Source of the DNA: Polynucleobacter sp. MWH-HuK1
GTDB lineage: Bacteria; Pseudomonadota; Gammaproteobacteria; Burkholderiales; Burkholderiaceae
DNA: 22,373 nt
Direction of reading: 5' to 3'
Assembly (NCBI RefSeq): GCF_018881815.1
Contig: NZ_JACVPP010000001.1
Coordinates: 408,979-431,351 of the forward strand
Shown here: positions 1,916 through 14,126 of the stretch, piece by piece
How the letters are laid out: each line of letters opens with the position of its first letter
Position numbering within the stretch: the stretch's first letter is position 1
The notes under the pieces: model-generated
Seen by the model: only the letters and a program-made list of their open reading frames with translations
What the model was told of the DNA's origin: nothing
Database searches by the model: none
Made by a program: the position numbers and the translations under genes

Positions 1916-1950
1916 TAGTTTTGTAGTAATCAAACTTAGTTAATTTGCTT

Positions 1951-1967
1951 TGTCGTTTCATACGACA
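1951..1967. repeat. Near-copy of the island palindrome (tgtcgtttcatacgaca)
   Basis: The core gtcgtttcatacgac differs by one base from the copy at 9295-9309 (gtcgtttcaaacgac). It is intergenic, between the methyltransferase and the DUF4395-like gene. Confidence 0.5.
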
Positions 1968-2001
1968 TACAGTTCACTATCTATATTAATGAGGGGTAAA
2001 C

Positions 2002-2754: not shown

Positions 2755-2760
2755 AGAGTC

Positions 2761-2833
2761 AGGCATCCTCTGCCCTGGTCGATTCCGCCCCGGGCCACCA
2801 AGAAACACTAAAACCACCTTCGGGTGGTTTTTT
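2761..2833 (+). repeat. tRNA-3'-half-like + terminator module, copy F1
   Basis: It begins aggcatcct. Bases 2779-2800 (tcgattccgccccgggccacca) are identical to 13229-13250. Then come the spacer agaaacacta, the hairpin aaaccacc-ttcg-ggtggttt (2811-2830) and a T-run (2828-2833). It starts 7 nt after the stop at 2752-2754. Confidence 0.8.
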
Positions 2834-2859
2834 CATTTGGGCTCGGTTACATTGTTGCT

Positions 2860-4050
2860 ATGAAAGCGCTCAAGAAAAGAATCCTGGGGTCTTGTTGTGG
2901 TGCCCATATTCTTCATGATGGATATACCGACCTACTGTATGTCATGTTTCCCATTTGGCAAATGGCATTTGGTCTATCGCTTGCTGAAGTTGGCTCTTTA
3001 AAGACTTTATATTCGGGGGCAATGGCTTCGCTACAAGTCCCAGCAAGTATGTTGTCAGAAAAGGTCGGTGAAAAACGCCTATTGCTATTCGGCACTCTGA
3101 TTGCGGCAATTGGATTTTTATTATCTGGTTGGACTACCGGTTTTTTGGGTTTAGCAGCCTGTTTAGTTCTTAGCGGTATTGGCGCCAGTGTTCAGCATCC
3201 CCTTTCCTCCTCATTAACTTCCCATGCTTTTCAAGGTTCGGAATTAAGGGGCGCTTTGAGCACATATAACTTTTCTGGCGATATAGGGAAGGTGTTGTTG
3301 CCATCACTCTGTGCGGCTTTATTGGCAGTCTGGGATTGGCATACCGTAACCAGCGTGATGGGGCTCTTGGGATTGTTGGCTGTAATGTTCTTAGCAGTTG
3401 TTCTACCTAAAACAACAGTTACCAATCACTCTAAGACCCAGTTAAATAAGGCATCAAGTGATACAAGCGGAAAAGGTGCAGGCAGCAACTTTCTTAATCT
3501 AGGCTTTATTTCTTTATCGTCAATTGCTGCTATCGATAGCGCTACTCGTATGGGGTTTCTAACACTACTACCTTTTTTATTAATGTCTAAAGGCGCCACA
3601 GTCACGCAGGTAGGCTTTGCGCTGAGTTTAACTTTTGCTGGTGGCGCCGCAGGTAAATTTGTTTGCGGGTTTATCGCAGCTCGTTTTGGCGTAATCAAAA
3701 CCACTTTAATAACAGAGATTGCTACGTCTATTCTGATGGCTTTAACCTTGCCGCTAAATGTTGATGTTGTTATGTTGATGCTGCCATTAGTTGGTGTTGC
3801 CTTAAATGGAACATCCTCTGGGCTTTATGGAACTGTCCCCGAGTTAGTTCCACCGCACATGCGATCAAGAGCATTTGGAGTGTTTTATACAGTAACAATT
3901 GGTGCTGGTGCTATTTCACCTCTTGTTTATGGTTTTGCCGGGGATAGGCTTGGAGTTCCGAATACTATTGCCCTAATTGCTTGCTCAGTATTAATGGTGC
4001 TACCGCTGACTTTGGTTTTAAAAAAAGCTTTTAGAAGATTACAAGTCTAG
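2860..4050 (+). CDS. MFS transporter
   Basis: The product is hydrophobic with about 12 TM segments. I prefer ATG 2860 (MKALKKR...) because the track's GTG at 2824 lies inside the F1 terminator hairpin. Confidence 0.8.
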   Translation: MKALKKRILGSCCGAHILHDGYTDLLYVMFPIWQMAFGLSLAEVGSLKTLYSGAMASLQVPASMLSEKVGEKRLLLFGTLIAAIGFLLSGWTTGFLGLAACLVLSGIGASVQHPLSSSLTSHAFQGSELRGALSTYNFSGDIGKVLLPSLCAALLAVWDWHTVTSVMGLLGLLAVMFLAVVLPKTTVTNHSKTQLNKASSDTSGKGAGSNFLNLGFISLSSIAAIDSATRMGFLTLLPFLLMSKGATVTQVGFALSLTFAGGAAGKFVCGFIAARFGVIKTTLITEIATSILMALTLPLNVDVVMLMLPLVGVALNGTSSGLYGTVPELVPPHMRSRAFGVFYTVTIGAGAISPLVYGFAGDRLGVPNTIALIACSVLMVLPLTLVLKKAFRRLQV

Positions 4051-4054
4051 AGCT

Positions 4055-4132
4055 AGGATTGGATATCTTTAGGCTTGGTCGATTCCGCCTCAGGCCACCA
4101 AGAAATACTAAAACCACCTCCGGGTGGTTTTT
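4055..4132 (+). repeat. tRNA-3'-half-like + terminator module, copy F2
   Basis: Sequence is aggattggatatctttaggcttggtcgattccgcctcaggccacca + agaaatacta + the hairpin aaaccacc-tccg-ggtggttt (4111-4130) + a T-run. It starts 5 nt after the stop at 4048-4050. Confidence 0.8.
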
Positions 4133-4169
4133 GTTTGGAGAATTGCGTATGGGGCGCCTGATTAAGAAG

Positions 4170-4186
4170 TGTCCTTTAAAAGGACA
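4170..4186. repeat. Palindrome tgtccttt-a-aaaggaca (variant of the island palindrome)
   Basis: It has perfect 8-bp arms. It differs from GTCGTTT-N-AAACGAC by one symmetric change per arm (G to C and C to G). Confidence 0.6.
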
Positions 4187-4214
4187 TGTCAATTACGCAT
4201 CCCTGCGTCAGTCG

Positions 4215-4233
4215 ATGTCGTTTTAAACGACAT
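4215..4233. repeat. Island palindrome copy A (atgtcgttttaaacgacat)
   Basis: Perfect 9-bp arms surround a central t. The 19-mer is identical to 5372-5390. Confidence 0.85.
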
Positions 4234-4238
4234 TACAC

Positions 4239-4262
4239 ATATATACGCATATGCGTATATAT
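4239..4262. repeat. 24-nt perfect palindrome atatatacgcat|atgcgtatatat
   Basis: I read it directly and it is exactly self-complementary over 24 nt. It sits at the left end of the island, next to the 3' end of the ORF at 4270-4734. Confidence 0.85.
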
Positions 4263-4269
4263 AGAAATC

Positions 4270-4734
4270 TTACTTTCTTTGATTAAGTTTTCCCGAGCTC
4301 CATATGTCAAATTGCCGTTGAGCTTCAGCAGTGATGCCATCAATAGAGTCTTGGGGTAATTGCTTAAGGCATTCAGCTAACGCTTCGGGGCTGGGTTTTT
4401 CAGCAGGCTTGGTCTTCTTAATTTCTTGCGGCGATTTGCCATCCCAAGCAAATGGATTGCCAAACGCTGGTGTATCGGGCAGGCAATCATCTCTATAGAC
4501 TGGCGCATCATTTGTAGCAAATGGCGTAAATGAAATCGTTCTTTCAAAGATGAGTGATTTGCCTGTTGGTGTAGGTGGCAGAGCTGGCATAGACTTCATT
4601 GCCTTTCTAGCTAATTGCTCCGCTTTATCGGAAGTTTTCCAAAGCGTTTCTACTTTAGTAACAGTTCCATTTGGAGCAATTTCAATGCTGAATCTCACAT
4701 GTCCTTGGTCTGGAGACCCTGCTCCAAAAATCAA
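4270..4734 (-). CDS. Hypothetical protein with a TonB-C-terminal-like segment; possibly a gene remnant
   Basis: GHVRFSIEIAPNGTVTKVETLWKTSDKAEQLARKAMKSM resembles the TonB C-terminal fold signature. The track start is TTG (rc of 4732-4734), with an in-frame stop 5 codons upstream. There is no TM or Pro-rich N-terminal part and no Shine-Dalgarno. Confidence 0.45.
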   Translation of the reverse strand: MIFGAGSPDQGHVRFSIEIAPNGTVTKVETLWKTSDKAEQLARKAMKSMPALPPTPTGKSLIFERTISFTPFATNDAPVYRDDCLPDTPAFGNPFAWDGKSPQEIKKTKPAEKPSPEALAECLKQLPQDSIDGITAEAQRQFDIWSSGKLNQRK

Positions 4735-4765
4735 GAAAATTAATGACTATGGGCAAACATTAGTT

Positions 4766-5137
4766 GTGGATGATGAAAAAAACATTCATGCCAAATATTT
4801 CTTTAGTCCTGATAAAAGACAAAATAAAGGCTTATTAATTCCTGTTGCCGCGCAAGTGGAGAACTTAACAATAGCTAAGTGGGAAAGAATTTCTATTCAG
4901 GGCAAGCTTGAGAGAAAGTTTAATCAAAAGGGATGGTTCAAGTGTCTTCAGGACTCACAAGGTTTTTATACGGAAATTGTTTTTGGTGAGCCGATAAAAT
5001 ACGAAATATGGATTAAATTAGTTGAAGATGGAGATGTATTTTTCGGTAGCGGGATGTACGAGGGAAATGCTAGACCATATTCTCAGTGGCGAGCTTCAAA
5101 CACGTTTTGGAATAAATTAATTACTAGCCGATACTAG
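4766..5137 (+). CDS. Hypothetical protein, start uncertain (GTG 4766 proposed)
   Basis: The 195-codon open frame 4550-5137 is antisense to 4270-4734 for its first 185 nt. Only the non-overlapping part looks protein-like (KYFFSPDKRQNKGLLIPV...WFKCLQDSQGFYTEIVFGEPIKYEIWIKLVEDGD). There is no in-frame ATG after 4735 until late in the frame. Confidence 0.35.
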   Translation: MDDEKNIHAKYFFSPDKRQNKGLLIPVAAQVENLTIAKWERISIQGKLERKFNQKGWFKCLQDSQGFYTEIVFGEPIKYEIWIKLVEDGDVFFGSGMYEGNARPYSQWRASNTFWNKLITSRY

Positions 5138-5164
5138 GTTGCCCATACATTTTATTGAAAATAA

Positions 5165-5199
5165 ACTTGCTGTATGAGCTCAAAACTTTTACAGCAAGT
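5165..5199 (+). promoter_or_regulatory. 10-bp-stem hairpin or operator immediately upstream of the integrase start
   Basis: acttgctgta (5165-5174) pairs perfectly with tacagcaagt (5190-5199) across a 15-nt loop. It ends 2 nt before ATG 5202 and covers where a Shine-Dalgarno would be. No T-run follows it. Confidence 0.5.
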
Positions 5200-5201
5200 C
5201 G

Positions 5202-6476
5202 ATGTCTAAAGACGTAGTCACTAAACTTACAAATCTAGAAGTTCTCCCCTCACCTCAGCATAAATCTCAATCCACAGTCTTAGGCCAACTTAAATACGCA
5301 GAGCCTACAGAGCTTTATTTACGTGACGGTGACGTAGTACTCTTTCGCAGACCAAATAGCCCTCTCTGGCAATGTCGTTTTAAACGACATGACAACACAT
5401 GGGACAGAGTCTCAACCAAGCAAGCATCAATTGAACATGCCGTCAGAGTTGCCTGTGATTTATATGATGAAGCCAGATTTCGCCAGCGGTTGGGGCTTGC
5501 GCAAAAAGCACCTACATTCGCAGAAATAGCGCACGCCACACTTTATGAAATGCGACGTGATTTGGATGAAGGCATTGGTAAGGTGGTTTACCTAAGCTAT
5601 ATCACTTGTATTGAGAAATACTTTTTGCCTTATTTCATGGATAAGCGACTAGAGGAAATAACCTATACAGACGTTCATGAGTTTGAGATTTGGCGTAATA
5701 GACAAATGCGACTAGTGCCTAAATCCAGCACCTTAATGAACTTTGCCAGTGCTTGGGCGAAGCTACAGCAGACAGCAGTTAATAAAGGCTGGATAAGTGA
5801 GCGAGTGGCAATACCTAAATTAACTACTCGTGGGCATAAAGGTAAAACTCGTCCTGCCTTTAGCCGCGAAGAGATTACCAAGTTATTTGAATATATGGAG
5901 AGGTGGGCCAAGGAAGGCCGCCTAGAGGTAGAGCGGGAGATAAGGCCTTTAGTACGTGACTATGTAGAGATGCTTTTGCTAACTGGCATGCGACATGGTA
6001 CTGAAGCACTCAATATTTGCTGGAACAATATTGAATGGCATACCAATGATGGCAAGAAATATCTGCGTATATGGGTGGATGGCAAAACTGGCGGTCGCTG
6101 GCTAATAGCTAAACATAGGGCTGTTGATGTTCTCAAGAGATTACATAGCCGCCAAAAAGCTGTGTATGACATTCCGTTTGATAGATTGTTTGAATCTCGT
6201 GCGCCGCAAAGGATATTTGTGATGGCAGATGGGCATCAACCTTTGCGTATTGATGGCACATTTAAGAAGCTTATGCGAGATAGTGGATTAGCCAGAAGTC
6301 AGGATGGGCAAATGCGTACCTTGTACTCATTGCGACATACTTACGCAACATTAGAGCTACTAGAGAATAAGACGGATATTCACACGCTGGCTAAGCAAAT
6401 GGGAAATAGTGCCGCCATGATTGAGAGGCACTATTCAAAACTGACTCCCACTATGGCGGCTGAGCAATTGGCGTAA
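5202..6476 (+). CDS. int: Tyrosine-type site-specific integrase (phage integrase family), 424 aa
   Basis: Catalytic signature: LLLLTGMRHGTEAL (box I Arg), YSLRHTYATLEL (HxxR) and MGNSAAMIERHYSK (Tyr). A long N-terminal arm/core-binding region is present. Confidence 0.9.
   Translation: MSKDVVTKLTNLEVLPSPQHKSQSTVLGQLKYAEPTELYLRDGDVVLFRRPNSPLWQCRFKRHDNTWDRVSTKQASIEHAVRVACDLYDEARFRQRLGLAQKAPTFAEIAHATLYEMRRDLDEGIGKVVYLSYITCIEKYFLPYFMDKRLEEITYTDVHEFEIWRNRQMRLVPKSSTLMNFASAWAKLQQTAVNKGWISERVAIPKLTTRGHKGKTRPAFSREEITKLFEYMERWAKEGRLEVEREIRPLVRDYVEMLLLTGMRHGTEALNICWNNIEWHTNDGKKYLRIWVDGKTGGRWLIAKHRAVDVLKRLHSRQKAVYDIPFDRLFESRAPQRIFVMADGHQPLRIDGTFKKLMRDSGLARSQDGQMRTLYSLRHTYATLELLENKTDIHTLAKQMGNSAAMIERHYSKLTPTMAAEQLA
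5372..5390. repeat. Island palindrome copy B, inside the integrase CDS
   Basis: atgtcgttttaaacgacat is identical to copy A. It encodes (Q)CRFKRH at int codons 57-63. Confidence 0.85.
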
Positions 6477-6478
6477 AA

Positions 6479-6500
6479 AAGCCCACTAAAAAGTGGGCTT
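6479..6500. terminator. Bidirectional intrinsic terminator between convergent genes
   Basis: aagcccac-taaaaa-gtgggctt is flanked by an A-run on the left and T/A-rich sequence on the right. It lies between the int stop (6476) and the stop of 6509-6916. Confidence 0.75.
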
Positions 6501-6508
6501 AAAGAGAG

Positions 6509-6916
6509 TTAATTGAGTTGCTGAATTTCTATGCCCTCAATAAAAGTTGGGCGTTTCTTTGGCATTTCATATTTAGAATTCAATCCTTCGGAGGGATTAA
6601 ATGAATCAGGGTGAATTAGTGCGACCCTGCTATTATTTAAATATGCTGATAAGGTCGCAAGAATCACGCAATCATCACAAAAATTCTTCCACCTTTGATT
6701 GCTAGATACGGCTAGGTGAGGATTAGAGTCAAAAAACTTGTCTTCCAAAGGCAGTGAATATTCAAGTCTTTTAAGCAAGCCCTTCAAAAATGATTCATCT
6801 TTTTGGGTGCGGTATTTATTCATATGCCATTCAAGATTAGATTGACTTGCCATAACAATTGTTGATAAACCAAATGGTGCCATGTAGACGCCATGGTGAA
6901 TATCTCGACTTTTCAT
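6509..6916 (-). CDS. Hypothetical protein (135 aa), translationally coupled to the AAA+ gene
   Basis: Its start overlaps the AAA+ stop in an ATGA (6913-6916). An AAGGAG Shine-Dalgarno sits at 6924-6929 (rc). I recognise no family. Confidence 0.7.
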   Translation of the reverse strand: MKSRDIHHGVYMAPFGLSTIVMASQSNLEWHMNKYRTQKDESFLKGLLKRLEYSLPLEDKFFDSNPHLAVSSNQRWKNFCDDCVILATLSAYLNNSRVALIHPDSFNPSEGLNSKYEMPKKRPTFIEGIEIQQLN

Positions 6917-7575
6917 ATCGCTACTCCTTTCCGCCTAGCTAACCGCTTGAGGCCATGATTAAGATTTCTAAATGACCCATTTGCCAATGAAATAGCCTCT
7001 AATAAAACTTCGTCGTTTAAAAAGACATTTTTATTTTGGGCGATTTCTTTTGCTAATGGCAAATACTCCTCAGGAGCGCCCGCATTCATTTCAATCAAAA
7101 CACATCTATCTTTAAGGCCTTTATCAAGCTCAGATATGTTGTTGGTTGTCAGAATAAAAACTGCCCTATGAGTATTCATGGCTGATTTCAAACTCTGCTG
7201 AGCTAACTTGGTTAGGTTATCGACTTCATCAAGGATGATGTAGTGAAGCCCGCTAGAGTTAAAGGACATGACGTTTAAGATATTGCCTATAAGTGTCATT
7301 ACCTGCGGCCCATTGAATCCCTGCTGACAGCCGATAAAGGTTTCCGGGCTATTTAAGCCAACTCCAGCTTTACCTTTTTCGATTGCGTCAGGTAGCAAGT
7401 TCGCGAGAGTGGTTTTTCCTGTCCCATAGACTCCGTAAAGAAGTAATCCTGATTTGCCGCTTGAAGGGATCTCTTCGATATTTGTGACAATATCTTCGAT
7501 TCGTAATCGACTTTCAGGATTGCTGTAGTAGATGTCAAAAACATTTTGAGGCGCATTTTGGTTCTCCTTGTTCAT
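6913..7575 (-). CDS. AAA+ ATPase with clamp-loader (RFC/DnaX/HolB)-like motifs, 220 aa
   Basis: Walker A is LLYGVYGTGKTT, Walker B is YIILDEVDNL, sensor-1 is FILTTNN, and an SRC-like DRC motif occurs in KGLKDRCVLIEM. A strong AAGGAG Shine-Dalgarno (rc of 7564-7569) precedes the start. Confidence 0.8.
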   Translation of the reverse strand: MNKENQNAPQNVFDIYYSNPESRLRIEDIVTNIEEIPSSGKSGLLLYGVYGTGKTTLANLLPDAIEKGKAGVGLNSPETFIGCQQGFNGPQVMTLIGNILNVMSFNSSGLHYIILDEVDNLTKLAQQSLKSAMNTHRAVFILTTNNISELDKGLKDRCVLIEMNAGAPEEYLPLAKEIAQNKNVFLNDEVLLEAISLANGSFRNLNHGLKRLARRKGVAI

Positions 7576-7599
7576 TTGTAATTCCTTTCAGTGTTTAAT

Positions 7600-7623
7600 G
7601 GTGGTGGCAGTTAAGCCACCACC
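7600..7623. terminator. 9-bp GC-rich hairpin between 7631-8419 and the AAA+ gene (possible attenuator)
   Basis: The hairpin is ggtggtggc-agttaa-gccaccacc. On the minus strand it is not followed by a clean T-run, so its termination efficiency is uncertain. Confidence 0.4.
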
Positions 7624-7630
7624 TGTTTGG

Positions 7631-8419
7631 TTAGGCCGCTTTGGCAAGTTTTGCTTCAGCATCGTTAGCCGCATCTACAACTCGTTTTGCTTCGGCTGTA
7701 ACCTCTTGTTGCTTTGAGTACATTGCCGCAAATGCCGCCTTTACGACGCTGGCATTACGAATCACGACTTTGATATCAAATCCACCCTGACTGTTTTGCT
7801 CTGCTAGCAATACACAGGTATCACCCATGAAATCAGCATCAGCTGTCAGCGAAAGCATTTCGGAGCTGGCAGTACCAAGGGCTTTCATGTTGTCAAAGTG
7901 CTCCTTTGCCATTTCTGCCTTATCAGCCATGCTTACAAAGGTTTCGCTTTGTCCCAGCTTGATTTCTTGAACGCCACCCTCTTTTTCAATCCAATCCGCT
8001 AGCTCTAAGTAAGGCACATTTAATTTTTGTGCTTTACGTAAAACGATGGAATAGGTGCTTAGGCGTCGTCTATCAACATCTCCAAATACAGCACGAATTA
8101 CGCGGGTAATTAATGGCTTGGTTTTGTTGTACTTATAGTTGCGTGATTTATAAAACTTCTCAAGCGAAGCCAAACGAGCTTTAGCGTCTCCAATTGATAG
8201 CTCTCCGCAAAACTGTAAGCATTGGGCTAGCACTTGATATAGAGCTTGATTACTTGTTCTATATGCGCCTTCTTCCCATGTAATACGACTTTCTTCCATA
8301 GCGTATAAGAGCTTGGTAGAAGTTGAGGCAATCGTAGCCTTACGAGCCTTCTTTTGTTTGTCGTTTAAAACGACTTTATTTGTTGCTGTTGTTTCTACTG
8401 CGTTAGTTAATGTATTCAT
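7631..8419 (-). CDS. Hypothetical protein (262 aa), predicted mostly helical
   Basis: A good AGGAGA Shine-Dalgarno (rc of 8427-8432) precedes the start. The N-terminus is basic (KQKKARKAT) and the C-terminus is Ala/Lys-rich. I recognise no family. Confidence 0.7.
   Translation of the reverse strand: MNTLTNAVETTATNKVVLNDKQKKARKATIASTSTKLLYAMEESRITWEEGAYRTSNQALYQVLAQCLQFCGELSIGDAKARLASLEKFYKSRNYKYNKTKPLITRVIRAVFGDVDRRRLSTYSIVLRKAQKLNVPYLELADWIEKEGGVQEIKLGQSETFVSMADKAEMAKEHFDNMKALGTASSEMLSLTADADFMGDTCVLLAEQNSQGGFDIKVVIRNASVVKAAFAAMYSKQQEVTAEAKRVVDAANDAEAKLAKAA
8360..8374. repeat. Island palindrome copy C, inside CDS 7631-8419
   Basis: gtcgtttaaaacgac encodes VVLND at codons 16-20 of the minus-strand gene. 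Confidence 0.8.
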
Positions 8420-8464
8420 TTTTACTTCTCCTGTGTGTATATAAAGGTATGGTTGCTTGTTAAG

Positions 8465-8520
8465 AAATTTAACCGCTTGGCCATGACTCTATTAGGCCTT
8501 TTTTTGATAAACTTAACCGC
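8465..8520. promoter_or_regulatory. Direct 12-mer repeat in the divergent promoter region
   Basis: aaatttaaccgc (8465-8476) and aaacttaaccgc (8509-8520) match at 11 of 12 positions and are offset by 44 bp. They lie between the divergent starts at 8419 and 8557. Confidence 0.4.
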
Positions 8521-8556
8521 ATACAAACTAATTAAAGTAATTTGGATGTTAAGAAA

Positions 8557-9312
8557 ATGTTAAGAAGATTCCTTGCCCAGCACCCAACATTTGGAACAAA
8601 GAACAATCCACGCTCTTTGTCATACCAACAACAAAGCCCTTATTACTGGTGGTGGGCTTATTTGCGTCGTAATGAGGACTACTTAAAGTGCTGTGAAAAA
8701 AGCGGCAAAGGAAAGTTCGCAAAACTCTATAAAGACTTTGGAGATGTAAGAGAAGATAACTTTAAGAAATGGTGGACGGAGGAACAGCGAGGCGCCAATC
8801 TATTTTCTGAACAAGCGGGGTTAATGACGCTAATCGAACTTGAAGATAAAAGCCAATGGGATGAAGCTTGGACTAAAGACAATGTACTGATAATTGCGGC
8901 GCCTCTTACATCTAGCAAAAGATATCTTCAAAGCAGATTTGCTCGATTATTGAAAGAGCGACATACCGCTAAACGAGGAAGAACAGCCAAGAAGCTGGAA
9001 GCTAGCAATGCCAACTATCCCCTCGAAAGAAATTACACAATAGAGAATTTGAGAAAGACACTTCAGGTTTACGACGAATATGTTCGCACTAGGGCTGATG
9101 TTAAGAAAGTACCGCTATGGAAGGTTGGGGAGAACCTCCGATTAGTGCCTACTGCCATGACCTCTTCAAAGTTAATGGCAGATGAAAACTTTTTAAGAAG
9201 AAACGTCATGGGCGCAACTGTTAAGCGTTATCTAAAAAATGCTGAAAGATATATCAATGGTGCGGCACAGGGAAAATTCCCTGTATCAACAAAAGTCGTT
9301 TCAAACGACTAA
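8557..9312 (+). CDS. Hypothetical protein with a Trp-rich YYWWWAYLRRNEDY motif (DUF6499-like N-terminus?)
   Basis: The track start is TTG 8542; I prefer ATG 8557 (MLRRFLAQ...). The motif recalls the W-x-FLRRNP-x-Y signature of a domain seen in ICE/island regulators. That assignment is from memory and unverified. Confidence 0.6.
   Translation: MLRRFLAQHPTFGTKNNPRSLSYQQQSPYYWWWAYLRRNEDYLKCCEKSGKGKFAKLYKDFGDVREDNFKKWWTEEQRGANLFSEQAGLMTLIELEDKSQWDEAWTKDNVLIIAAPLTSSKRYLQSRFARLLKERHTAKRGRTAKKLEASNANYPLERNYTIENLRKTLQVYDEYVRTRADVKKVPLWKVGENLRLVPTAMTSSKLMADENFLRRNVMGATVKRYLKNAERYINGAAQGKFPVSTKVVSND
9294..9310. repeat. Island palindrome copy D, spanning two convergent stop codons
   Basis: agtcgttt-c-aaacgact encodes KVVSND-stop of 8557-9312 and overlaps the stop of 9309-9875. 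A second palindrome, acagggaa-aa-ttccctgt, lies just upstream (about 9267-9284). Confidence 0.8.
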
Positions 9313-9875
9313 ACCAATTCAACCGCCGCTTTAAGTTGAGTTGGACTTGAATATAGATAGCTAGCAGTAGTGCTGATGTTTCTATGCCCTGCCAAGCTTT
9401 TTAATATATGGATTGCTGTACCTTTATTGGCAAGGCCAGTTAGAAAGCTACGTCTTCCGCTATGACTACTCGCACCATCTAAGCCTACGTTGCGATATAG
9501 GTAAAAGAAGTACTGGGCTAGGGAGTTAGCTGAGAAACCTGCTTGTTTCTGCGTGTAGAACAAAGGCTTGCCGGCATCCCTAATGCGAAGTAGACGCAAA
9601 TACTGGCCAATCTCTTTGCGCATACGTTCATTAAGGTAAACAGTACGGGCATGTTTACCCTTGGTTTGTTCGGGCAATAAACGTACTTCATCCTTAATCG
9701 TGTTATCGCTGTTTAAAACGTCGTTTATGCGTAGGGCGGCAACTTCACCTACCCGCATACCCGCGTAATGCGTAAGTAGCAACATAGCGCGATTACGTGC
9801 GCTGTGCCTACGTGTAGCAACATGGTCTAAAACTCTACGTAGCTCTTGTGGGTTTAAAACTCTAGCTTGTGACAT
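9309..9875 (-). CDS. Small tyrosine recombinase, catalytic domain only (188 aa; FimB/FimE-sized)
   Basis: The protein has HSARNRAMLLLTHYAGMRVGEVAALRINDV (box I Arg), HSGRRSF (HxxR) and LAGHRNISTTASYLY (His/Tyr). There is no N-terminal core-binding domain. A GGGAGA Shine-Dalgarno precedes the start. Confidence 0.85.
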   Translation of the reverse strand: MSQARVLNPQELRRVLDHVATRRHSARNRAMLLLTHYAGMRVGEVAALRINDVLNSDNTIKDEVRLLPEQTKGKHARTVYLNERMRKEIGQYLRLLRIRDAGKPLFYTQKQAGFSANSLAQYFFYLYRNVGLDGASSHSGRRSFLTGLANKGTAIHILKSLAGHRNISTTASYLYSSPTQLKAAVELV

Positions 9876-10835
9876 ACGTTCTCCCTGAAATGTAATAAAT
9901 ACAGAGCTACAGTATGTTTTCTTATGTTTGGTTAGAGCAACCGAAAATGGCTAAGTAAGAACCTTCCAAAATTCAAAGACTTAGCTGATTTCATAATCTT
10001 TTACATATTAGATTATGTTTTCGTGGCATTTTCGCCACGAACTTTCATGAAGTATTTATAAGCCCTACAAGCTGTTTGATTTCGGGTTCTGCTACCCAAG
10101 TAAGCGAAAGCTTCTAATCATCGCTTAAACGAAGGATTTACCCTGAATGGGTCTACAGCTATTAAATTTCTGGGCTACGAAAAATTAATAGGTAGCTGAA
10201 GCTTTTCGGGTGGTGATTTTCTACCTATACCCCCTTAGTAGTAAGCGAGCTAACACTCGCTTGTGATTTCGCTTGTCGCTCATCACATTTCTTTCTTCTT
10301 AAATTGTTTGTATTGGCTTTCTCTAGATTCAACCTACACTGAGCCTTAAGCAACAGGCTCAGTTATAGAGAAGAAATAAGGAAAAGGACTTTCTCTGAGT
10401 TCTTTACTACACCACTTAGGGCACAACCCAATTGGGTAAGGGCGGTTTTGCTGTCTCCTTTTATGTGCGGCCGTAAAACGCAACAATGACATCAGCATTA
10501 AGTGGCTACCAATGTCTTGTTCGCAAGTTGCTGTGTAAGCAGGGCTTGCTCGTGATTCATTTAATCTTTGTGCTGAAACATTCTTGTATCAATTAGTAAG
10601 CAACTCTAATGGCGTCCTGTAAAGGATAGTGATACTAAGTCTCTGCTACTGCCCAGAATTTCCATCACTGCGACTCTAAGTCCAGCTTTAGGGTGACATA
10701 ACGACTGGGTGTCACTGCCCTTGTTTCAGTAGTAATTTATAAAGTTATTTAGCAAAACCTAATAAAAGAAGAGTAGAAATGAATGTGATTATTAGGTATA
10801 TGTGGCTTTTGGCATAAAGAGGTTGCTCTTTCGAA
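9876..10835. other. 960-bp ORF-free region rich in local hairpins (candidate invertible switch, large ncRNA, ori or decayed DNA)
   Basis: The track shows no ORF of 60 aa or more in any frame. Hairpins occur at 9992-10017, 10021-10040, 10243-10262 and 10338-10363. The hexamer gtaagc occurs 4 times (10100, 10241, 10535, 10596). A 9-bp inverted repeat, agagcaacc (9934-9942) and ggttgctct (10821-10829), brackets the region. Confidence 0.5.
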
Positions 10836-10883
10836 ATGGCCGACAATAAATTAACTGTGCCCATTCACACAAAGGAGAAAACG

Positions 10884-11321
10884 ATGAGCACACTTAATAG
10901 TTTGAAATTAGTAAATTCTAAAAAACCAACCGCAATTCCACCCATCCTTCATCGCCGTAATAAGCTAGGTTCTAAGGTATGGGAGCAAATTCAGCTAGCC
11001 AAAGCGCAAAAGGAAGGCGGTACTTTTACTGTTAAGAAATTCAAAACAGTGAAAGACTACGACGGCTCGCGTAAGAATATTGAAATTGAAAAGCGTATAC
11101 GCCAGTGGTGGTACGTGGCGGCTGACGGCAAGGTTTGCTTAAACATTCGCTATGGGGCAAAAATTATTGAATTTGCCAAAGGTAAAACTGCCGTAGAGGT
11201 GGGCTCAGGCGAAGAGCTTATTAAGGCACTTGAGATTATTAAAGGCGCTGTAGAAGCTGGCGAACTCGATACCCAAATTGAACAGGCTAGTGGGGCTGTT
11301 CGAGCTGGGTTTGGCCGTTAA
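10884..11321 (+). CDS. Hypothetical island protein (145 aa), DUF6641-like by recollection
   Basis: An AGGAGA Shine-Dalgarno at 10873-10878 favours ATG 10884 (MSTLNSLK...) over the track's 10836. The pattern RRNKL...EQIQLAKAQ...KRIRQWW...IRYGAKIIEFAKGK..VEV...ELDTQIE resembles a family seen in proteobacterial islands. That resemblance is unverified. Confidence 0.7.
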   Translation: MSTLNSLKLVNSKKPTAIPPILHRRNKLGSKVWEQIQLAKAQKEGGTFTVKKFKTVKDYDGSRKNIEIEKRIRQWWYVAADGKVCLNIRYGAKIIEFAKGKTAVEVGSGEELIKALEIIKGAVEAGELDTQIEQASGAVRAGFGR

Positions 11322-11328
11322 CTTGGAG

Positions 11329-11345
11329 TGTCGTTTAAAACGACA
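11329..11345. repeat. Island palindrome copy F
   Basis: tgtcgttt-a-aaacgaca lies between the stop at 11321 and the real terminator at 11357-11399. Confidence 0.8.
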
Positions 11346-11356
11346 AATGATGAATA

Positions 11357-11399
11357 CAGAGCTAATGCTATTGCTAATGGTATTAGCTCTGCTCTTTTT
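11357..11399 (+). terminator. Intrinsic terminator
   Basis: cagagctaat (11357-11366) pairs with attagctctg (11382-11391), followed by ctcttttt. Confidence 0.7.
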
Positions 11400-11409
11400 G
11401 GAGGATTGA

Positions 11410-11559
11410 ATGAAAACATTTGAAGCTTATGTACGAATACAGCCTCAGGGTTGGGTTGTGAAAACTCAGGTAGTTGCAGATAACAGTCAAGATGCTTATT
11501 TTTTATTACAAGGACAGTATGGCGCTGGCAATATAGTTCACTTGCCGTCTGAGGTTTAA
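11410..11559 (+). CDS. Small hypothetical protein (49 aa), below the ORF-track cutoff
   Basis: A GGAGGA Shine-Dalgarno at 11400-11405 lies 4 nt before ATG 11410. The ORF reads MKTFEAYVRIQPQGWVVKTQVVADNSQDAYFLLQGQYGAGNIVHLPSEV and stops at 11557-11559. Confidence 0.5.
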   Translation: MKTFEAYVRIQPQGWVVKTQVVADNSQDAYFLLQGQYGAGNIVHLPSEV

Positions 11560-11610
11560 GAATTTATTTGTAAATGGGTCTCTCGCTAAATATATTAAAA
11601 GGAGAGACTC

Positions 11611-12018
11611 ATGAAAGTTAAAGAAGTCACAAACCCTGAAGAGCAGTTAGGGTTGCTAAGGGTAATTATTGATAACACTTGGAGTGCCATCCAACAGCAG
11701 GCAGATGCCCATGCTAGGCAGAAAGCATCGCAACCACTTGCGAAACCAAAAGCTAAAGCTCCCAAGCCACCCAAGAAAGCCCCGCATGTCCCAAAACCAC
11801 AGCCTCTAGCAAAGCCCAAGGCTCCTTATCCAGCCATGCCACAGCCAGCAATGAAAAGTACTATCGGTAGAGCAGTCTATAAACAGCCTCAACCCAGTAT
11901 TGGCGCCCCAAAACAAACGGCGACTAGTCCTTCTAATCAGCCGAACGCTTCACTATCCAGTTTAGAGAAAGACGAAATGCTCAGCCTCCCTCGTGGAGCT
12001 TTGCCAAAACCGCTCTAG
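11611..12018 (+). CDS. Hypothetical protein with a Pro/Lys-rich low-complexity centre
   Basis: An AAGGAGA Shine-Dalgarno precedes the start, and KPKAKAPKPPKKAPHVPKPQPLAKPKAPYP forms the centre. The Shine-Dalgarno lies in the 3' arm of a hairpin (gtctctc 11578-11584 pairs with gagagac 11602-11608). Confidence 0.65.
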   Translation: MKVKEVTNPEEQLGLLRVIIDNTWSAIQQQADAHARQKASQPLAKPKAKAPKPPKKAPHVPKPQPLAKPKAPYPAMPQPAMKSTIGRAVYKQPQPSIGAPKQTATSPSNQPNASLSSLEKDEMLSLPRGALPKPL

Positions 12019-12162
12019 TGATTCAAAAGCGCGGTTTACATGGAGATTCATATGCTTTATTGATTGACAGAATAAAGCGCAGACAGGCATAGTGAAAATG
12101 AATAAGGATTAATTACATTTAGTAGAATGATTTTCATTCATTACACATAAATTGGAGCGGGC

Positions 12163-12972
12163 ATGGCAAAGGCACCAGCAAAAAAGACTGCTGTTAAAAA
12201 ACCGACTAAGAAGGTAGTTATTAAAAAGCCTAAGCCGTTAGCTCTAAAAAAGCCTGTTGCTAAAGCGCCTGCCAAGAAGGCTGTCAAAAAATCAACAACA
12301 CCTGATTACTTTAAGTTGCCATTTGAGGTTTATTACAGCGACCATGTGGGCGTTAATCAGATGGAGTTTAAGTCCGACGTAAAGTGCAAGTCATTTAGGG
12401 ATGTGAAGGTGGTACATCAAGAGCAAGGCGGCTCTTGGGGTCTTTCGCTTTATTGCCCCAAAAATAATGGGCCAGAACTTTACTGCTGTTTAACCAATGG
12501 CCATGATGAGGTTCAGCCAGAATGGTTGGATTATCTTGACGAGGAAAATATAGATTTCAACTCTGGAACTAACTATAAGGTTGTCGTAGAGGGGAATGAA
12601 ATTAGATTTGAATATCTAACTGACGATGAAGAAGACGAAGATTCAGAGGAATATCTCGATATCGATAATATGGATTATTGCTGTAGTTATACATTTATGA
12701 CTTATGAGTTGGGAGATAGTTGTCCAGACTACATAATTCTTGATGCTGATGACACAAGAATTAAAGTTAATTTAGATGGTTATTTGCTGGATGAAAACGA
12801 CGACGCTACAGAAGAGCAAATTATCGATGTAGAAAAATTGATTGAGAGTGATGAGTTGTCAGACTACGAAGTTGACGAGCTTTGGGATGCCAAAAATAAA
12901 TGGGTTGAATCCATTCTGAAGAAAGATTTTCCAAAAGATACAAATCTGTCTTTATCTTTCAAGACAAAATAA
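12163..12972 (+). CDS. Bipolar protein: histone-H1-like Lys/Ala-rich N-terminus plus a Cys-containing, strongly acidic C-terminal region
   Basis: The N-terminal ~45 aa are AKAPAKKTAVKKPTKKVVIKKPKPLALKKPVAKAPAKKAVKK. The C-terminal part has DDEEDEDSEEYLDIDNMDY and DENDDATEEQIIDVEKLIESDELSDYEVDELWD. Confidence 0.75.
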   Translation: MAKAPAKKTAVKKPTKKVVIKKPKPLALKKPVAKAPAKKAVKKSTTPDYFKLPFEVYYSDHVGVNQMEFKSDVKCKSFRDVKVVHQEQGGSWGLSLYCPKNNGPELYCCLTNGHDEVQPEWLDYLDEENIDFNSGTNYKVVVEGNEIRFEYLTDDEEDEDSEEYLDIDNMDYCCSYTFMTYELGDSCPDYIILDADDTRIKVNLDGYLLDENDDATEEQIIDVEKLIESDELSDYEVDELWDAKNKWVESILKKDFPKDTNLSLSFKTK

Positions 12973-12990
12973 TGTCGTTCAAAACGACAT
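12972..12990. repeat. Island palindrome copy G, at the right end of the island
   Basis: atgtcgttcaaaacgacat has 8-bp arms and starts on the last base of the stop codon of 12163-12972. Confidence 0.8.
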
Positions 12991-13031
12991 GCCAAGTAGA
13001 AATGGTTGGTGGCAGGCACAGGAGTCAAACT

Positions 13032-13146
13032 AATTTTTGACTGACACATATATGTTTTGAGCTTGCGCACAGTTTTTACACGCTAAGGCAACTTTCTGAT
13101 TACGCTCGAAATTTTGACCGGCACATTAAGTAAATTTTGCGCACGA
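13032..13146 (+). repeat. Imperfect direct repeat units at the right island end
   Basis: aatttttgactgacacat (13032-13049) resembles aaattttgaccggcacat (13109-13126), and ttgcgcac occurs at both 13063-13070 and 13137-13144. The period is about 75-77 bp. Confidence 0.5.
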
Positions 13147-13153
13147 AATGTCT

Positions 13154-13250
13154 GGGGTGGTGTAACCAGTTGAAATCAAAGCGAAAGCGGTCTATCGGAG
13201 GATATTTGAAAATCCTTGTGTCGGTGGTTCGATTCCGCCCCGGGCCACCA
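13154..13250 (+). pseudogene. tRNA-like remnant: well-formed 3' half (13199-13250) without a matching 5' acceptor strand
   Basis: The T-arm is ggtgg-ttcgatt-ccgcc (13223-13239), followed by acceptor 3' strand ccgggcc, discriminator a and CCA ending at 13250. The anticodon-like stem aggat/atcct (13199-13216) closes an 8-nt loop, atttgaaa. The best upstream partner, ggggtgg (13154-13160), gives two G-G mismatches. Confidence 0.55.
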
Positions 13251-13260
13251 AACTCAAATA

Positions 13261-13580: not shown

Positions 13581-13656
13581 AGGATTGGCTCCTTACCCTT
13601 GGTCGATTTTGCCCTGGGCCATCAAGAAATAAAAAACCACCCGAAGGTGGTTTTTT
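13581..13656 (+). repeat. tRNA-3'-half-like + terminator module, copy F4
   Basis: Sequence is aggattggctccttacccttggtcgattttgccctgggccatca + agaaataaaa + the hairpin aaccacc-cgaa-ggtggtt + tttttt. It starts 10 nt after the stop at 13569-13571. Confidence 0.75.
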
Positions 13657-13690
13657 ATTTGGTTTATGGGTAATTCATTAAGATTGGCTT

Positions 13691-14050
13691 ATGCCTAACT
13701 TATCTAATTTCTTTGGCCCATTTTCTTTTGTTGGCCTTTTAGTTCTTTCAAATGTTTTTATGACATTTGCCTGGTACGCGCATCTTAAAAATCTATCATC
13801 CAAACCTTGGTGGATTGCTGTACTCGCTAGCTGGGCAATTGCTTTACTCGAGTATGTCTTTCAGGTGCCCGCTAATCGGATTGGATTTCAATATTTTTCC
13901 TTGGGACAACTCAAGATTGCTCAGGAGGTGATTACGCTGAGCGTCTTCGTACCATTTGCTGTTTTCTATATGGGCGAACCATTTAAGACCGATTACATAT
14001 GGGCTGGCCTATGTTTGTTGGGTGCGGTCTACTTTATGTTTAGAGGCTAA
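13691..14050 (+). CDS. DMT-superfamily small membrane protein (DUF486 type)
   Basis: The product is 119 aa with 4 TM segments. The FMTFAWYAHLK and EY..QVPANRIG motifs are typical of DUF486. Confidence 0.8.
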   Translation: MPNLSNFFGPFSFVGLLVLSNVFMTFAWYAHLKNLSSKPWWIAVLASWAIALLEYVFQVPANRIGFQYFSLGQLKIAQEVITLSVFVPFAVFYMGEPFKTDYIWAGLCLLGAVYFMFRG

Positions 14051-14126
14051 GGATCAAGCATCCTGGGGCTTGGTCGATTCCGCGCTGATCCACCAAGCAA
14101 TACCAAAGCCACCTTCTGGTGGTTTT
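14050..14126 (+). repeat. tRNA-3'-half-like + terminator module, copy F5
   Basis: It starts on the last base of the stop codon. Sequence is aggat-caagc-atcct (both halves of the anticodon-like stem kept) + ggggcttggtcgattccgcgctgatccacca + agcaatacca + the hairpin aagccacc-ttct-ggtggttt. Confidence 0.75.

Follow-up and report, generated by a model that had tools for sequence, protein, structure and literature searches.

Mobile islands of one family, which insert into the tRNA-Phe gene of freshwater Polynucleobacter, share the palindrome TGTCGTTT-N-AAACGACA (PAL, 17-19 bp), a genuine and conserved DNA signal. PAL is most likely not where the island recombines. We lean, at a little short of an even chance, towards PAL being a dyad site for a dimeric regulator encoded by the element itself.

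Occurrence, symmetry and coding context of PAL

The window, which is the whole stretch of 22,373 nucleotides that was analysed, contains 7-9 copies of PAL between positions 1950 and 12990, where 0 would be expected by chance. A search with the pattern ATGTCGTTTNAAACGACAT, tolerating up to 3 mismatches, placed pattern starts at 1950, 4169, 4215, 5372, 7010, 8358, 9293, 11328 and 12972, and 0 of the 100 dinucleotide-preserving shuffles that served as control contained any ATGTCGTTTNAAACGACAT match. A preliminary description of this DNA had counted at least six copies, and this was borne out, as were the identity of the 19-mers at 4215-4233 and 5372-5390, the symmetric variant near 4170 (4169-4187, of the GTCC..GGAC type) and a near copy at 1950, which has one mismatch in the 17-mer core and two in the 19-mer. 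The ‘degenerate copy’ at 9706-9722 was absent from the search at up to 3 mismatches and should be dropped. An extra weak copy at 7010-7028, within the AAA ATPase gene, had been overlooked.

PAL falls into discrete, symmetric types, namely P1 (GTCC..GGAC), P2 (GTCG..CGAC) and a third type, P3. Comparison of the half-sites of 128 PAL sites gave 72 GT/GT and 27 CT/CT pairs and only 2 P1/P2 hybrids; symmetric PALs numbered 100 of 128 against 53 expected, and the dyad symmetry is evidently under selection. PAL type is element-specific. All copies are GTCCGTTTAAAGGAC in L138, L139 and L141, and of the P1 type in L003; the orthologous sites of the window are P2. The copies that lie outside the attachment arms, and the genes that carry or adjoin them, are given below.

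1950..1968, unstranded: PAL copy (TTGTCGTTTCATACGACAT) external to the integrase element, flanked by methyltransferase and DUF4395 cassette genes
5202..6476, + strand: tyrosine integrase (int), 424 aa
5372..5390, unstranded: P2 within int, codons 57-63 (CRFKRH), conserved in L053 and L132-L137
6913..7575, - strand: clamp-loader/DnaC-like AAA ATPase gene, present only in PAL-rich elements
7010..7028, unstranded: weak PAL-like sequence in the AAA gene, encoding NVFLND, possibly chance or incipient
7631..8419, - strand: gene with PAL as codons 16-21 (120 homologues compared)
8358..8376, unstranded: P2 in the 5' coding region of 7631-8419, facing the divergent gene 8557-9312
9293..9311, unstranded: P2 variant (AAGTCGTTTCAAACGACTA) where 8557-9312 and the small recombinase gene converge with their 3' ends
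9309..9875, - strand: 188-aa tyrosine recombinase (Rec188), catalytic domain only, FimB/E-sized, Xer-like
10836..11321, + strand: DUF6641 backbone gene
11328..11346, unstranded: P2 immediately past the DUF6641 stop codon, ahead of a separate terminator hairpin

Copies lie inside coding sequence, as the preliminary description had stated: in int (codons 57-63), in 7631-8419 (codons 16-21) and over the final codons of 8557-9312, where PAL overlaps the stop of 9309-9875. Among 120 homologues of 7631-8419, the peptide encoded by PAL was VVLND in 90, VLLKD in 13, VVSND in 6 and a hybrid in 2, and VLLND was found in 0. Another int sub-lineage carries PAL at the non-homologous codons 323-332; within int, PAL arose at two such positions. 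The earlier proposal that PAL is selected as DNA, also within coding sequence, was supported. Equivalents of the copy past DUF6641 were seen in L093, L133, L029, L138 and L145, and methyltransferase homologues in L084 and L092 adjoin a PAL, as does the one in the window.

A scan of 185,579 species genomes gave at least 119 blocks with PAL; among the matches listed, 39 were Polynucleobacter blocks and 18 came from other Burkholderiales, the majority with tRNA-Phe fragments or island genes. About 140 chance matches are estimated for 16 fixed bases in 596 Gb, with which the single PAL matches in unrelated phyla, among the matches listed, are compatible. The 9 kb at the right of the window held 0 matches beyond 12990, and in the segment examined of the complete P. 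yangtzensis genome 6 of 6 copies lay within the island. PAL is limited to the tRNA-Phe island family of Polynucleobacter and Limnohabitans, as the preliminary description had proposed for the single island. The backbone genes 8557-9312, 7631-8419 and AAA ATPase are in all PAL-rich backbones and missing from PAL-poor relatives. An exact-string search across 8 million papers found no occurrence of the PAL strings.

Element boundaries and attachment arms

The window belongs to an integration hot spot at tRNA-Phe(GAA). Its gene cassettes are divided by no fewer than five tRNA-Phe 3' fragments, and the arrays carry an intact tRNA-Phe at their left end. Tycheposons and additive flexible genomic islands are likewise tRNA-anchored, with successive integrations and partial tRNA repeats between cassettes (bioRxiv 10.1101/2020.12.28.424599; PMC10872708). 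The surroundings are the same here, including tyrosine recombinases and a replication-like module; a word search of bioRxiv 10.1101/2020.12.28.424599 and PMC10872708 found no description of a repeated palindromic motif.

2755..2840, + strand: tRNA-Phe-3'-like repeat and terminator, array cassette boundary (dozens of such repeats in other genomes by blastn)
4044..4132, + strand: attL core, a degenerate tRNA-Phe 3' repeat (GGTCGATTCCGCCTCAGGCCACCA at 4075-4100) and terminator
4169..4187, unstranded: P1-type PAL (GTCCTTTAAAAGGAC), proximal site of the left att arm, part of the P1-spacer-P2 module
4188..4214, + strand: conserved module spacer (..CATCCCTGCGTCAGTCGA), read directly from the sequence
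4215..4233, unstranded: P2, bordering the left att arm on its outer side and directly followed by variable cargo
12972..12990, unstranded: P2, outer edge of the right att arm, abutting the stop codon of 12163-12972
12991..13169, + strand: right att arm
13170..13251, + strand: attR core, a tRNA-Phe 3' fragment with its last 44 nt identical to tRNA-Phe
13600..13660, + strand: degenerate tRNA-Phe-like repeat and terminator, end of the BrnA cassette
14050..14126, + strand: tRNA-Phe-like repeat, end of the DMT_6 cassette

Homology with the near-identical element copies L136 and L134 starts at 4055-4062, and near-identical copies break at 4055-4062, 13251 and 13654. Between genomes, homology blocks begin 25-50 nt ahead of the tRNA CCA end and end 0-9 nt past it. 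Because the blocks break within the tRNA-Phe repeats, these repeats, and not PAL, are the crossover sites, and the comparisons show that strand exchange in integration and excision takes place within the tRNA-Phe 3' repeat. What had been described as an island is one integrase-bearing element between the tRNA-Phe-like direct repeats 4044-4132 and 13170-13251. The PALs said to lie at both island ends do exist at 4215 and 12972; they mark the outer limit of each att arm, and the ends themselves are the direct repeats. With direct repeats bounding the element and homology breaking at the CCA end, the suggestion that PAL is a tyrosine-recombinase core site found no support. The spacer polarity proposed along with it did not hold either, the central base being A or T in a ratio of 12:12 in 24 identically oriented modules. 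The same gene order and orientation between PALs in the compared backbones (3-5 copies each) likewise speaks against inverted end copies and the predicted 1157-bp deletion. Crossovers at the centres of P1 and P2 would be expected to yield hybrids, and their scarcity (2 of 128 sites, 2 of 120 proteins) counts against the core-site reading.

The conserved P1-spacer-P2 module was found 24 times, with a P1-P2 spacing of 46 or 45 bp in 24/24. The motif TGYGTCAGTCRA of the left-arm spacer recurs inverted in the right arm, at ~13030-13045. Homology with L046 spans exactly 12974-13251, and the right-arm PAL is kept although its flanks are ~70% identical. In both arms PAL is the final conserved base ahead of variable cargo, and 14 distinct cargo contexts follow directly after the left-arm P2. 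Measured from the core, PALs of the left arm lie at ~+80 and +125 and those of the right arm at -30 to -300. Homology between elements stops exactly at the outer PAL edge at 51 of 146 sites; 9.3% of homology-block endpoints fall within PAL, compared to 1.0% for random positions, with a pile-up at 17-mer offsets -8 and +8. The precision of these edges suggests joint formation at PAL, and a pure binding-site model accounts for it only via selection together with genome streamlining.

Possible alternative functions of PAL

Edge precision would be explained if PAL were a second site-specific recombination site, used by the small tyrosine recombinase, an explanation that we consider unlikely. Two monomers would occupy TGTCG arms flanking a TTTWAAA overlap, P1, P2 and P3 would be heterospecific sites, and cargo modules would be captured by or swapped between elements, like pdif modules or in recombinase-mediated cassette exchange. 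The clustering of homology ends at the outer 17-mer edge and the unrelated cargos after the left-arm P2 count in its favour, as do the bracketing of both cargo slots by PALs, a geometry compatible with a Y-recombinase dimer, and backbones 93-99% identical that differ in cargo from the PAL edge onward. A Polynucleobacter-1 RNA module has rec188 and DUF6641 as its neighbours in the window, and in L138 is found upstream of int between two PALs. The small recombinase gene, which partners the integrase in all related elements, terminates at the 9293 PAL in the window and at an equivalent PAL in L053, L119 and L138. An identical asymmetric G is found in four PAL copies of L138, and looks more like copying of a variant between sites than independent adaptation to a homodimer. 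Against this stand the near absence of P1/P2 hybrids, the lack of polarity, the lack of inversion or deletion between PALs in the elements compared, and the two different, each symmetric, types that often flank cargo. Moreover, an occupied slot may have a single PAL (L003, window, L053; AAA/int junction), tRNA-like repeats alone bound most array cassettes, and L073, L025, L101 and L143 have the small recombinase with no adjacent PAL. Sites of a comparable kind are integron attC, the sfx sites of the R64 shufflon and pdif, the XerC/D sites found on either side of modules in Acinetobacter plasmids. PAL resembles them in being a short dyad that flanks exchangeable modules with base-precise borders near tyrosine recombinase genes, but differs in having no polarity, almost no hybrids and, in the elements compared, no inter-copy rearrangements, and in that most cassettes are bounded by tRNA-like repeats. 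Annotation of the element genes revealed no IntI-type integrase.

PAL is found in each arm at a set distance from the core, as well as upstream of and within int. This would also fit paired, inverted arm-type sites bound by the N-terminal domain of the 424-aa integrase, which would serve intasome building and int autoregulation as in phage P4; we regard this as distinctly improbable. The arms are conserved in cargo-only cassettes, which require cis sites only, and residues 37-96 of the integrase are predicted to form a four-stranded sheet and a helix (pLDDT ~89), a topology that we take to resemble known arm-binding domains. Yet a fold search with the N-domain gave no lambda or Tn916 Int match, Pfam gave no arm-binding domain, and 66%-identical integrases with the same invariant N-terminal residues are found at tRNA-Lys, with neither PAL nor another recurrent palindrome. 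L120 has no PAL between tRNA and int, this reading does not account for the interior copies located where other genes end, and the conserved TGYGTCAGTCRA of both arms could be the true arm site instead. In attP of the lambda type, arm-type and accessory sites bind Int, Xis and IHF, P4 Int autoregulates, and the known arm sites are short, non-palindromic repeats. PAL is similar in that it occupies both arms, in its constant spacing from a core derived from a tRNA, in marking the outer att limits and in overlapping with int regulation; it differs in being palindromic, in its absence from close integrase relatives at tRNA-Lys and in that the arm-binding fold was not confirmed.

A nucleic-acid hairpin between modules (a weak bidirectional terminator, an insulator, an mRNA 3' stabiliser or a DNA cruciform), its sequence kept by common descent alone, seems to us highly unlikely. 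PAL does fold stably as RNA (-8 to -8.7 kcal/mol, z ~-4.2 to -5.0), most copies (89%) are intergenic, and 23% follow a stop codon by no more than 15 nt, compared to 2% of random positions. The changes between P1 and P2 are compensatory, 4 window copies pass a terminator-like scan on one strand, and PAL-less relatives carry other hairpins after DUF6641. However, the sequence is conserved across genera beyond pairing and in just three discrete types; one-sided departures from P1 and P2 are non-pairing about as often as G:T wobble; and positions +/-3 are frequently unpaired in the P3 and L138 types. PALs also lie where no termination is needed, in the arms beyond the terminator of the tRNA, ahead of the int -35 and in the 5' coding region of a gene. 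The copy at 11328 sits between a stop codon (11321) and a separate, proper terminator-like hairpin (11357-11391), in line with the earlier remark that the motif is not simply a terminator. REP and BIME sequences are chromosome-wide short palindromes associated with a RAYT transposase. PAL is equally short, mostly intergenic, often just past stops and of few discrete types, and forms BIME-like mosaics with conserved linkers (P1-31 nt-P2 or P1-P3-P2), but it does not extend beyond one island, and there was no sign of a RAYT-like gene.

A candidate element-encoded regulator

A multi-copy operator for an island-encoded regulator, offered as an alternative in the preliminary description, was the best-fitting reading. 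PAL positions are fixed and outside the core: in the att arms, upstream of the int -35, at the 5' end of the 7631-8419/AAA operon, and at the 3' ends of backbone genes by cargo slots. A dimer of the regulator, for which the product of 8557-9312 is the best candidate, would bind these sites and switch int and the presumed replication operon on or off, and may also mark or shape the att arms. A cargo-only cassette in which the arms are retained would still respond in trans, and P1, P2 and P3 would be specificity variants changing in step within an element. It is unusual for a plain operator that 23% of PALs adjoin stop codons and that many are found in the att arms and not at promoters. KorA and KorB operators are short perfect palindromes present in many copies per IncP plasmid, at and away from promoters, and serve plasmid-encoded global regulators. 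PAL is similarly a many-copy short palindrome on one mobile element, at promoters and elsewhere, with a putative regulator; its host, however, is an integrative island and not a plasmid, and it additionally delimits cargo slots and att arms. Annotation of the element genes yielded neither a ParB nor a KorA homologue.

8557..9312, + strand: candidate PAL-binding regulator gene, 251 aa, WWWAYLRRN at residues 30-39, weakly FseA/RovC-like
5139..5175, + strand: putative int promoter remnant TTGCCC-17 nt-TAAACT, inferred, as the window's own site failed the promoter scan

Single members of the 8557-9312 family gave weak matches to PF20109 (E 0.016) and PF10074 RovC_DNA-bd (E 0.0037), the Pfam links being limited to 1/39 and 1/43 members. 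A PDB sequence search with the product gave no match, and its AlphaFold2 model (pLDDT 87) no PDB fold match, RovC included. FseA, a DUF6499-DUF2285 activator of ICEMlSymR7A, targets the excisionase promoter, where it binds as a dimer to an inverted repeat just upstream of the PrdfS -35, and has the DUF6499 hallmark AWEFLRRN at residues 31-38 (PMC10359603). The candidate is equal in length, has WxxLRRN at the same residues and matches both FseA domain families weakly. PAL, too, is an inverted repeat on an integrative element and, in L133, lies immediately upstream of the -35 of a recombination gene. The FseA box spans 28 bp, its hexamers being separated by 22 bp, and is in essence present once (PMC10359603), whereas PAL measures 17-19 bp, has half-sites ~12 bp apart and is found 5-8 times in each element, also in coding sequence and att arms.

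A PAL lies 75-88 nt upstream of the int ATG in L133, L135, L137, L138 and L145, whose integrases are down to 46% identical. In L133 it ends 10 nt ahead of the promoter-like TTGTCC-17-TAAAAT detected by the promoter scan. The copy just upstream of the int promoter is of the P1 type in L133, L135 and L137, and the window has the end of the RE_LlaMI cargo gene there instead.

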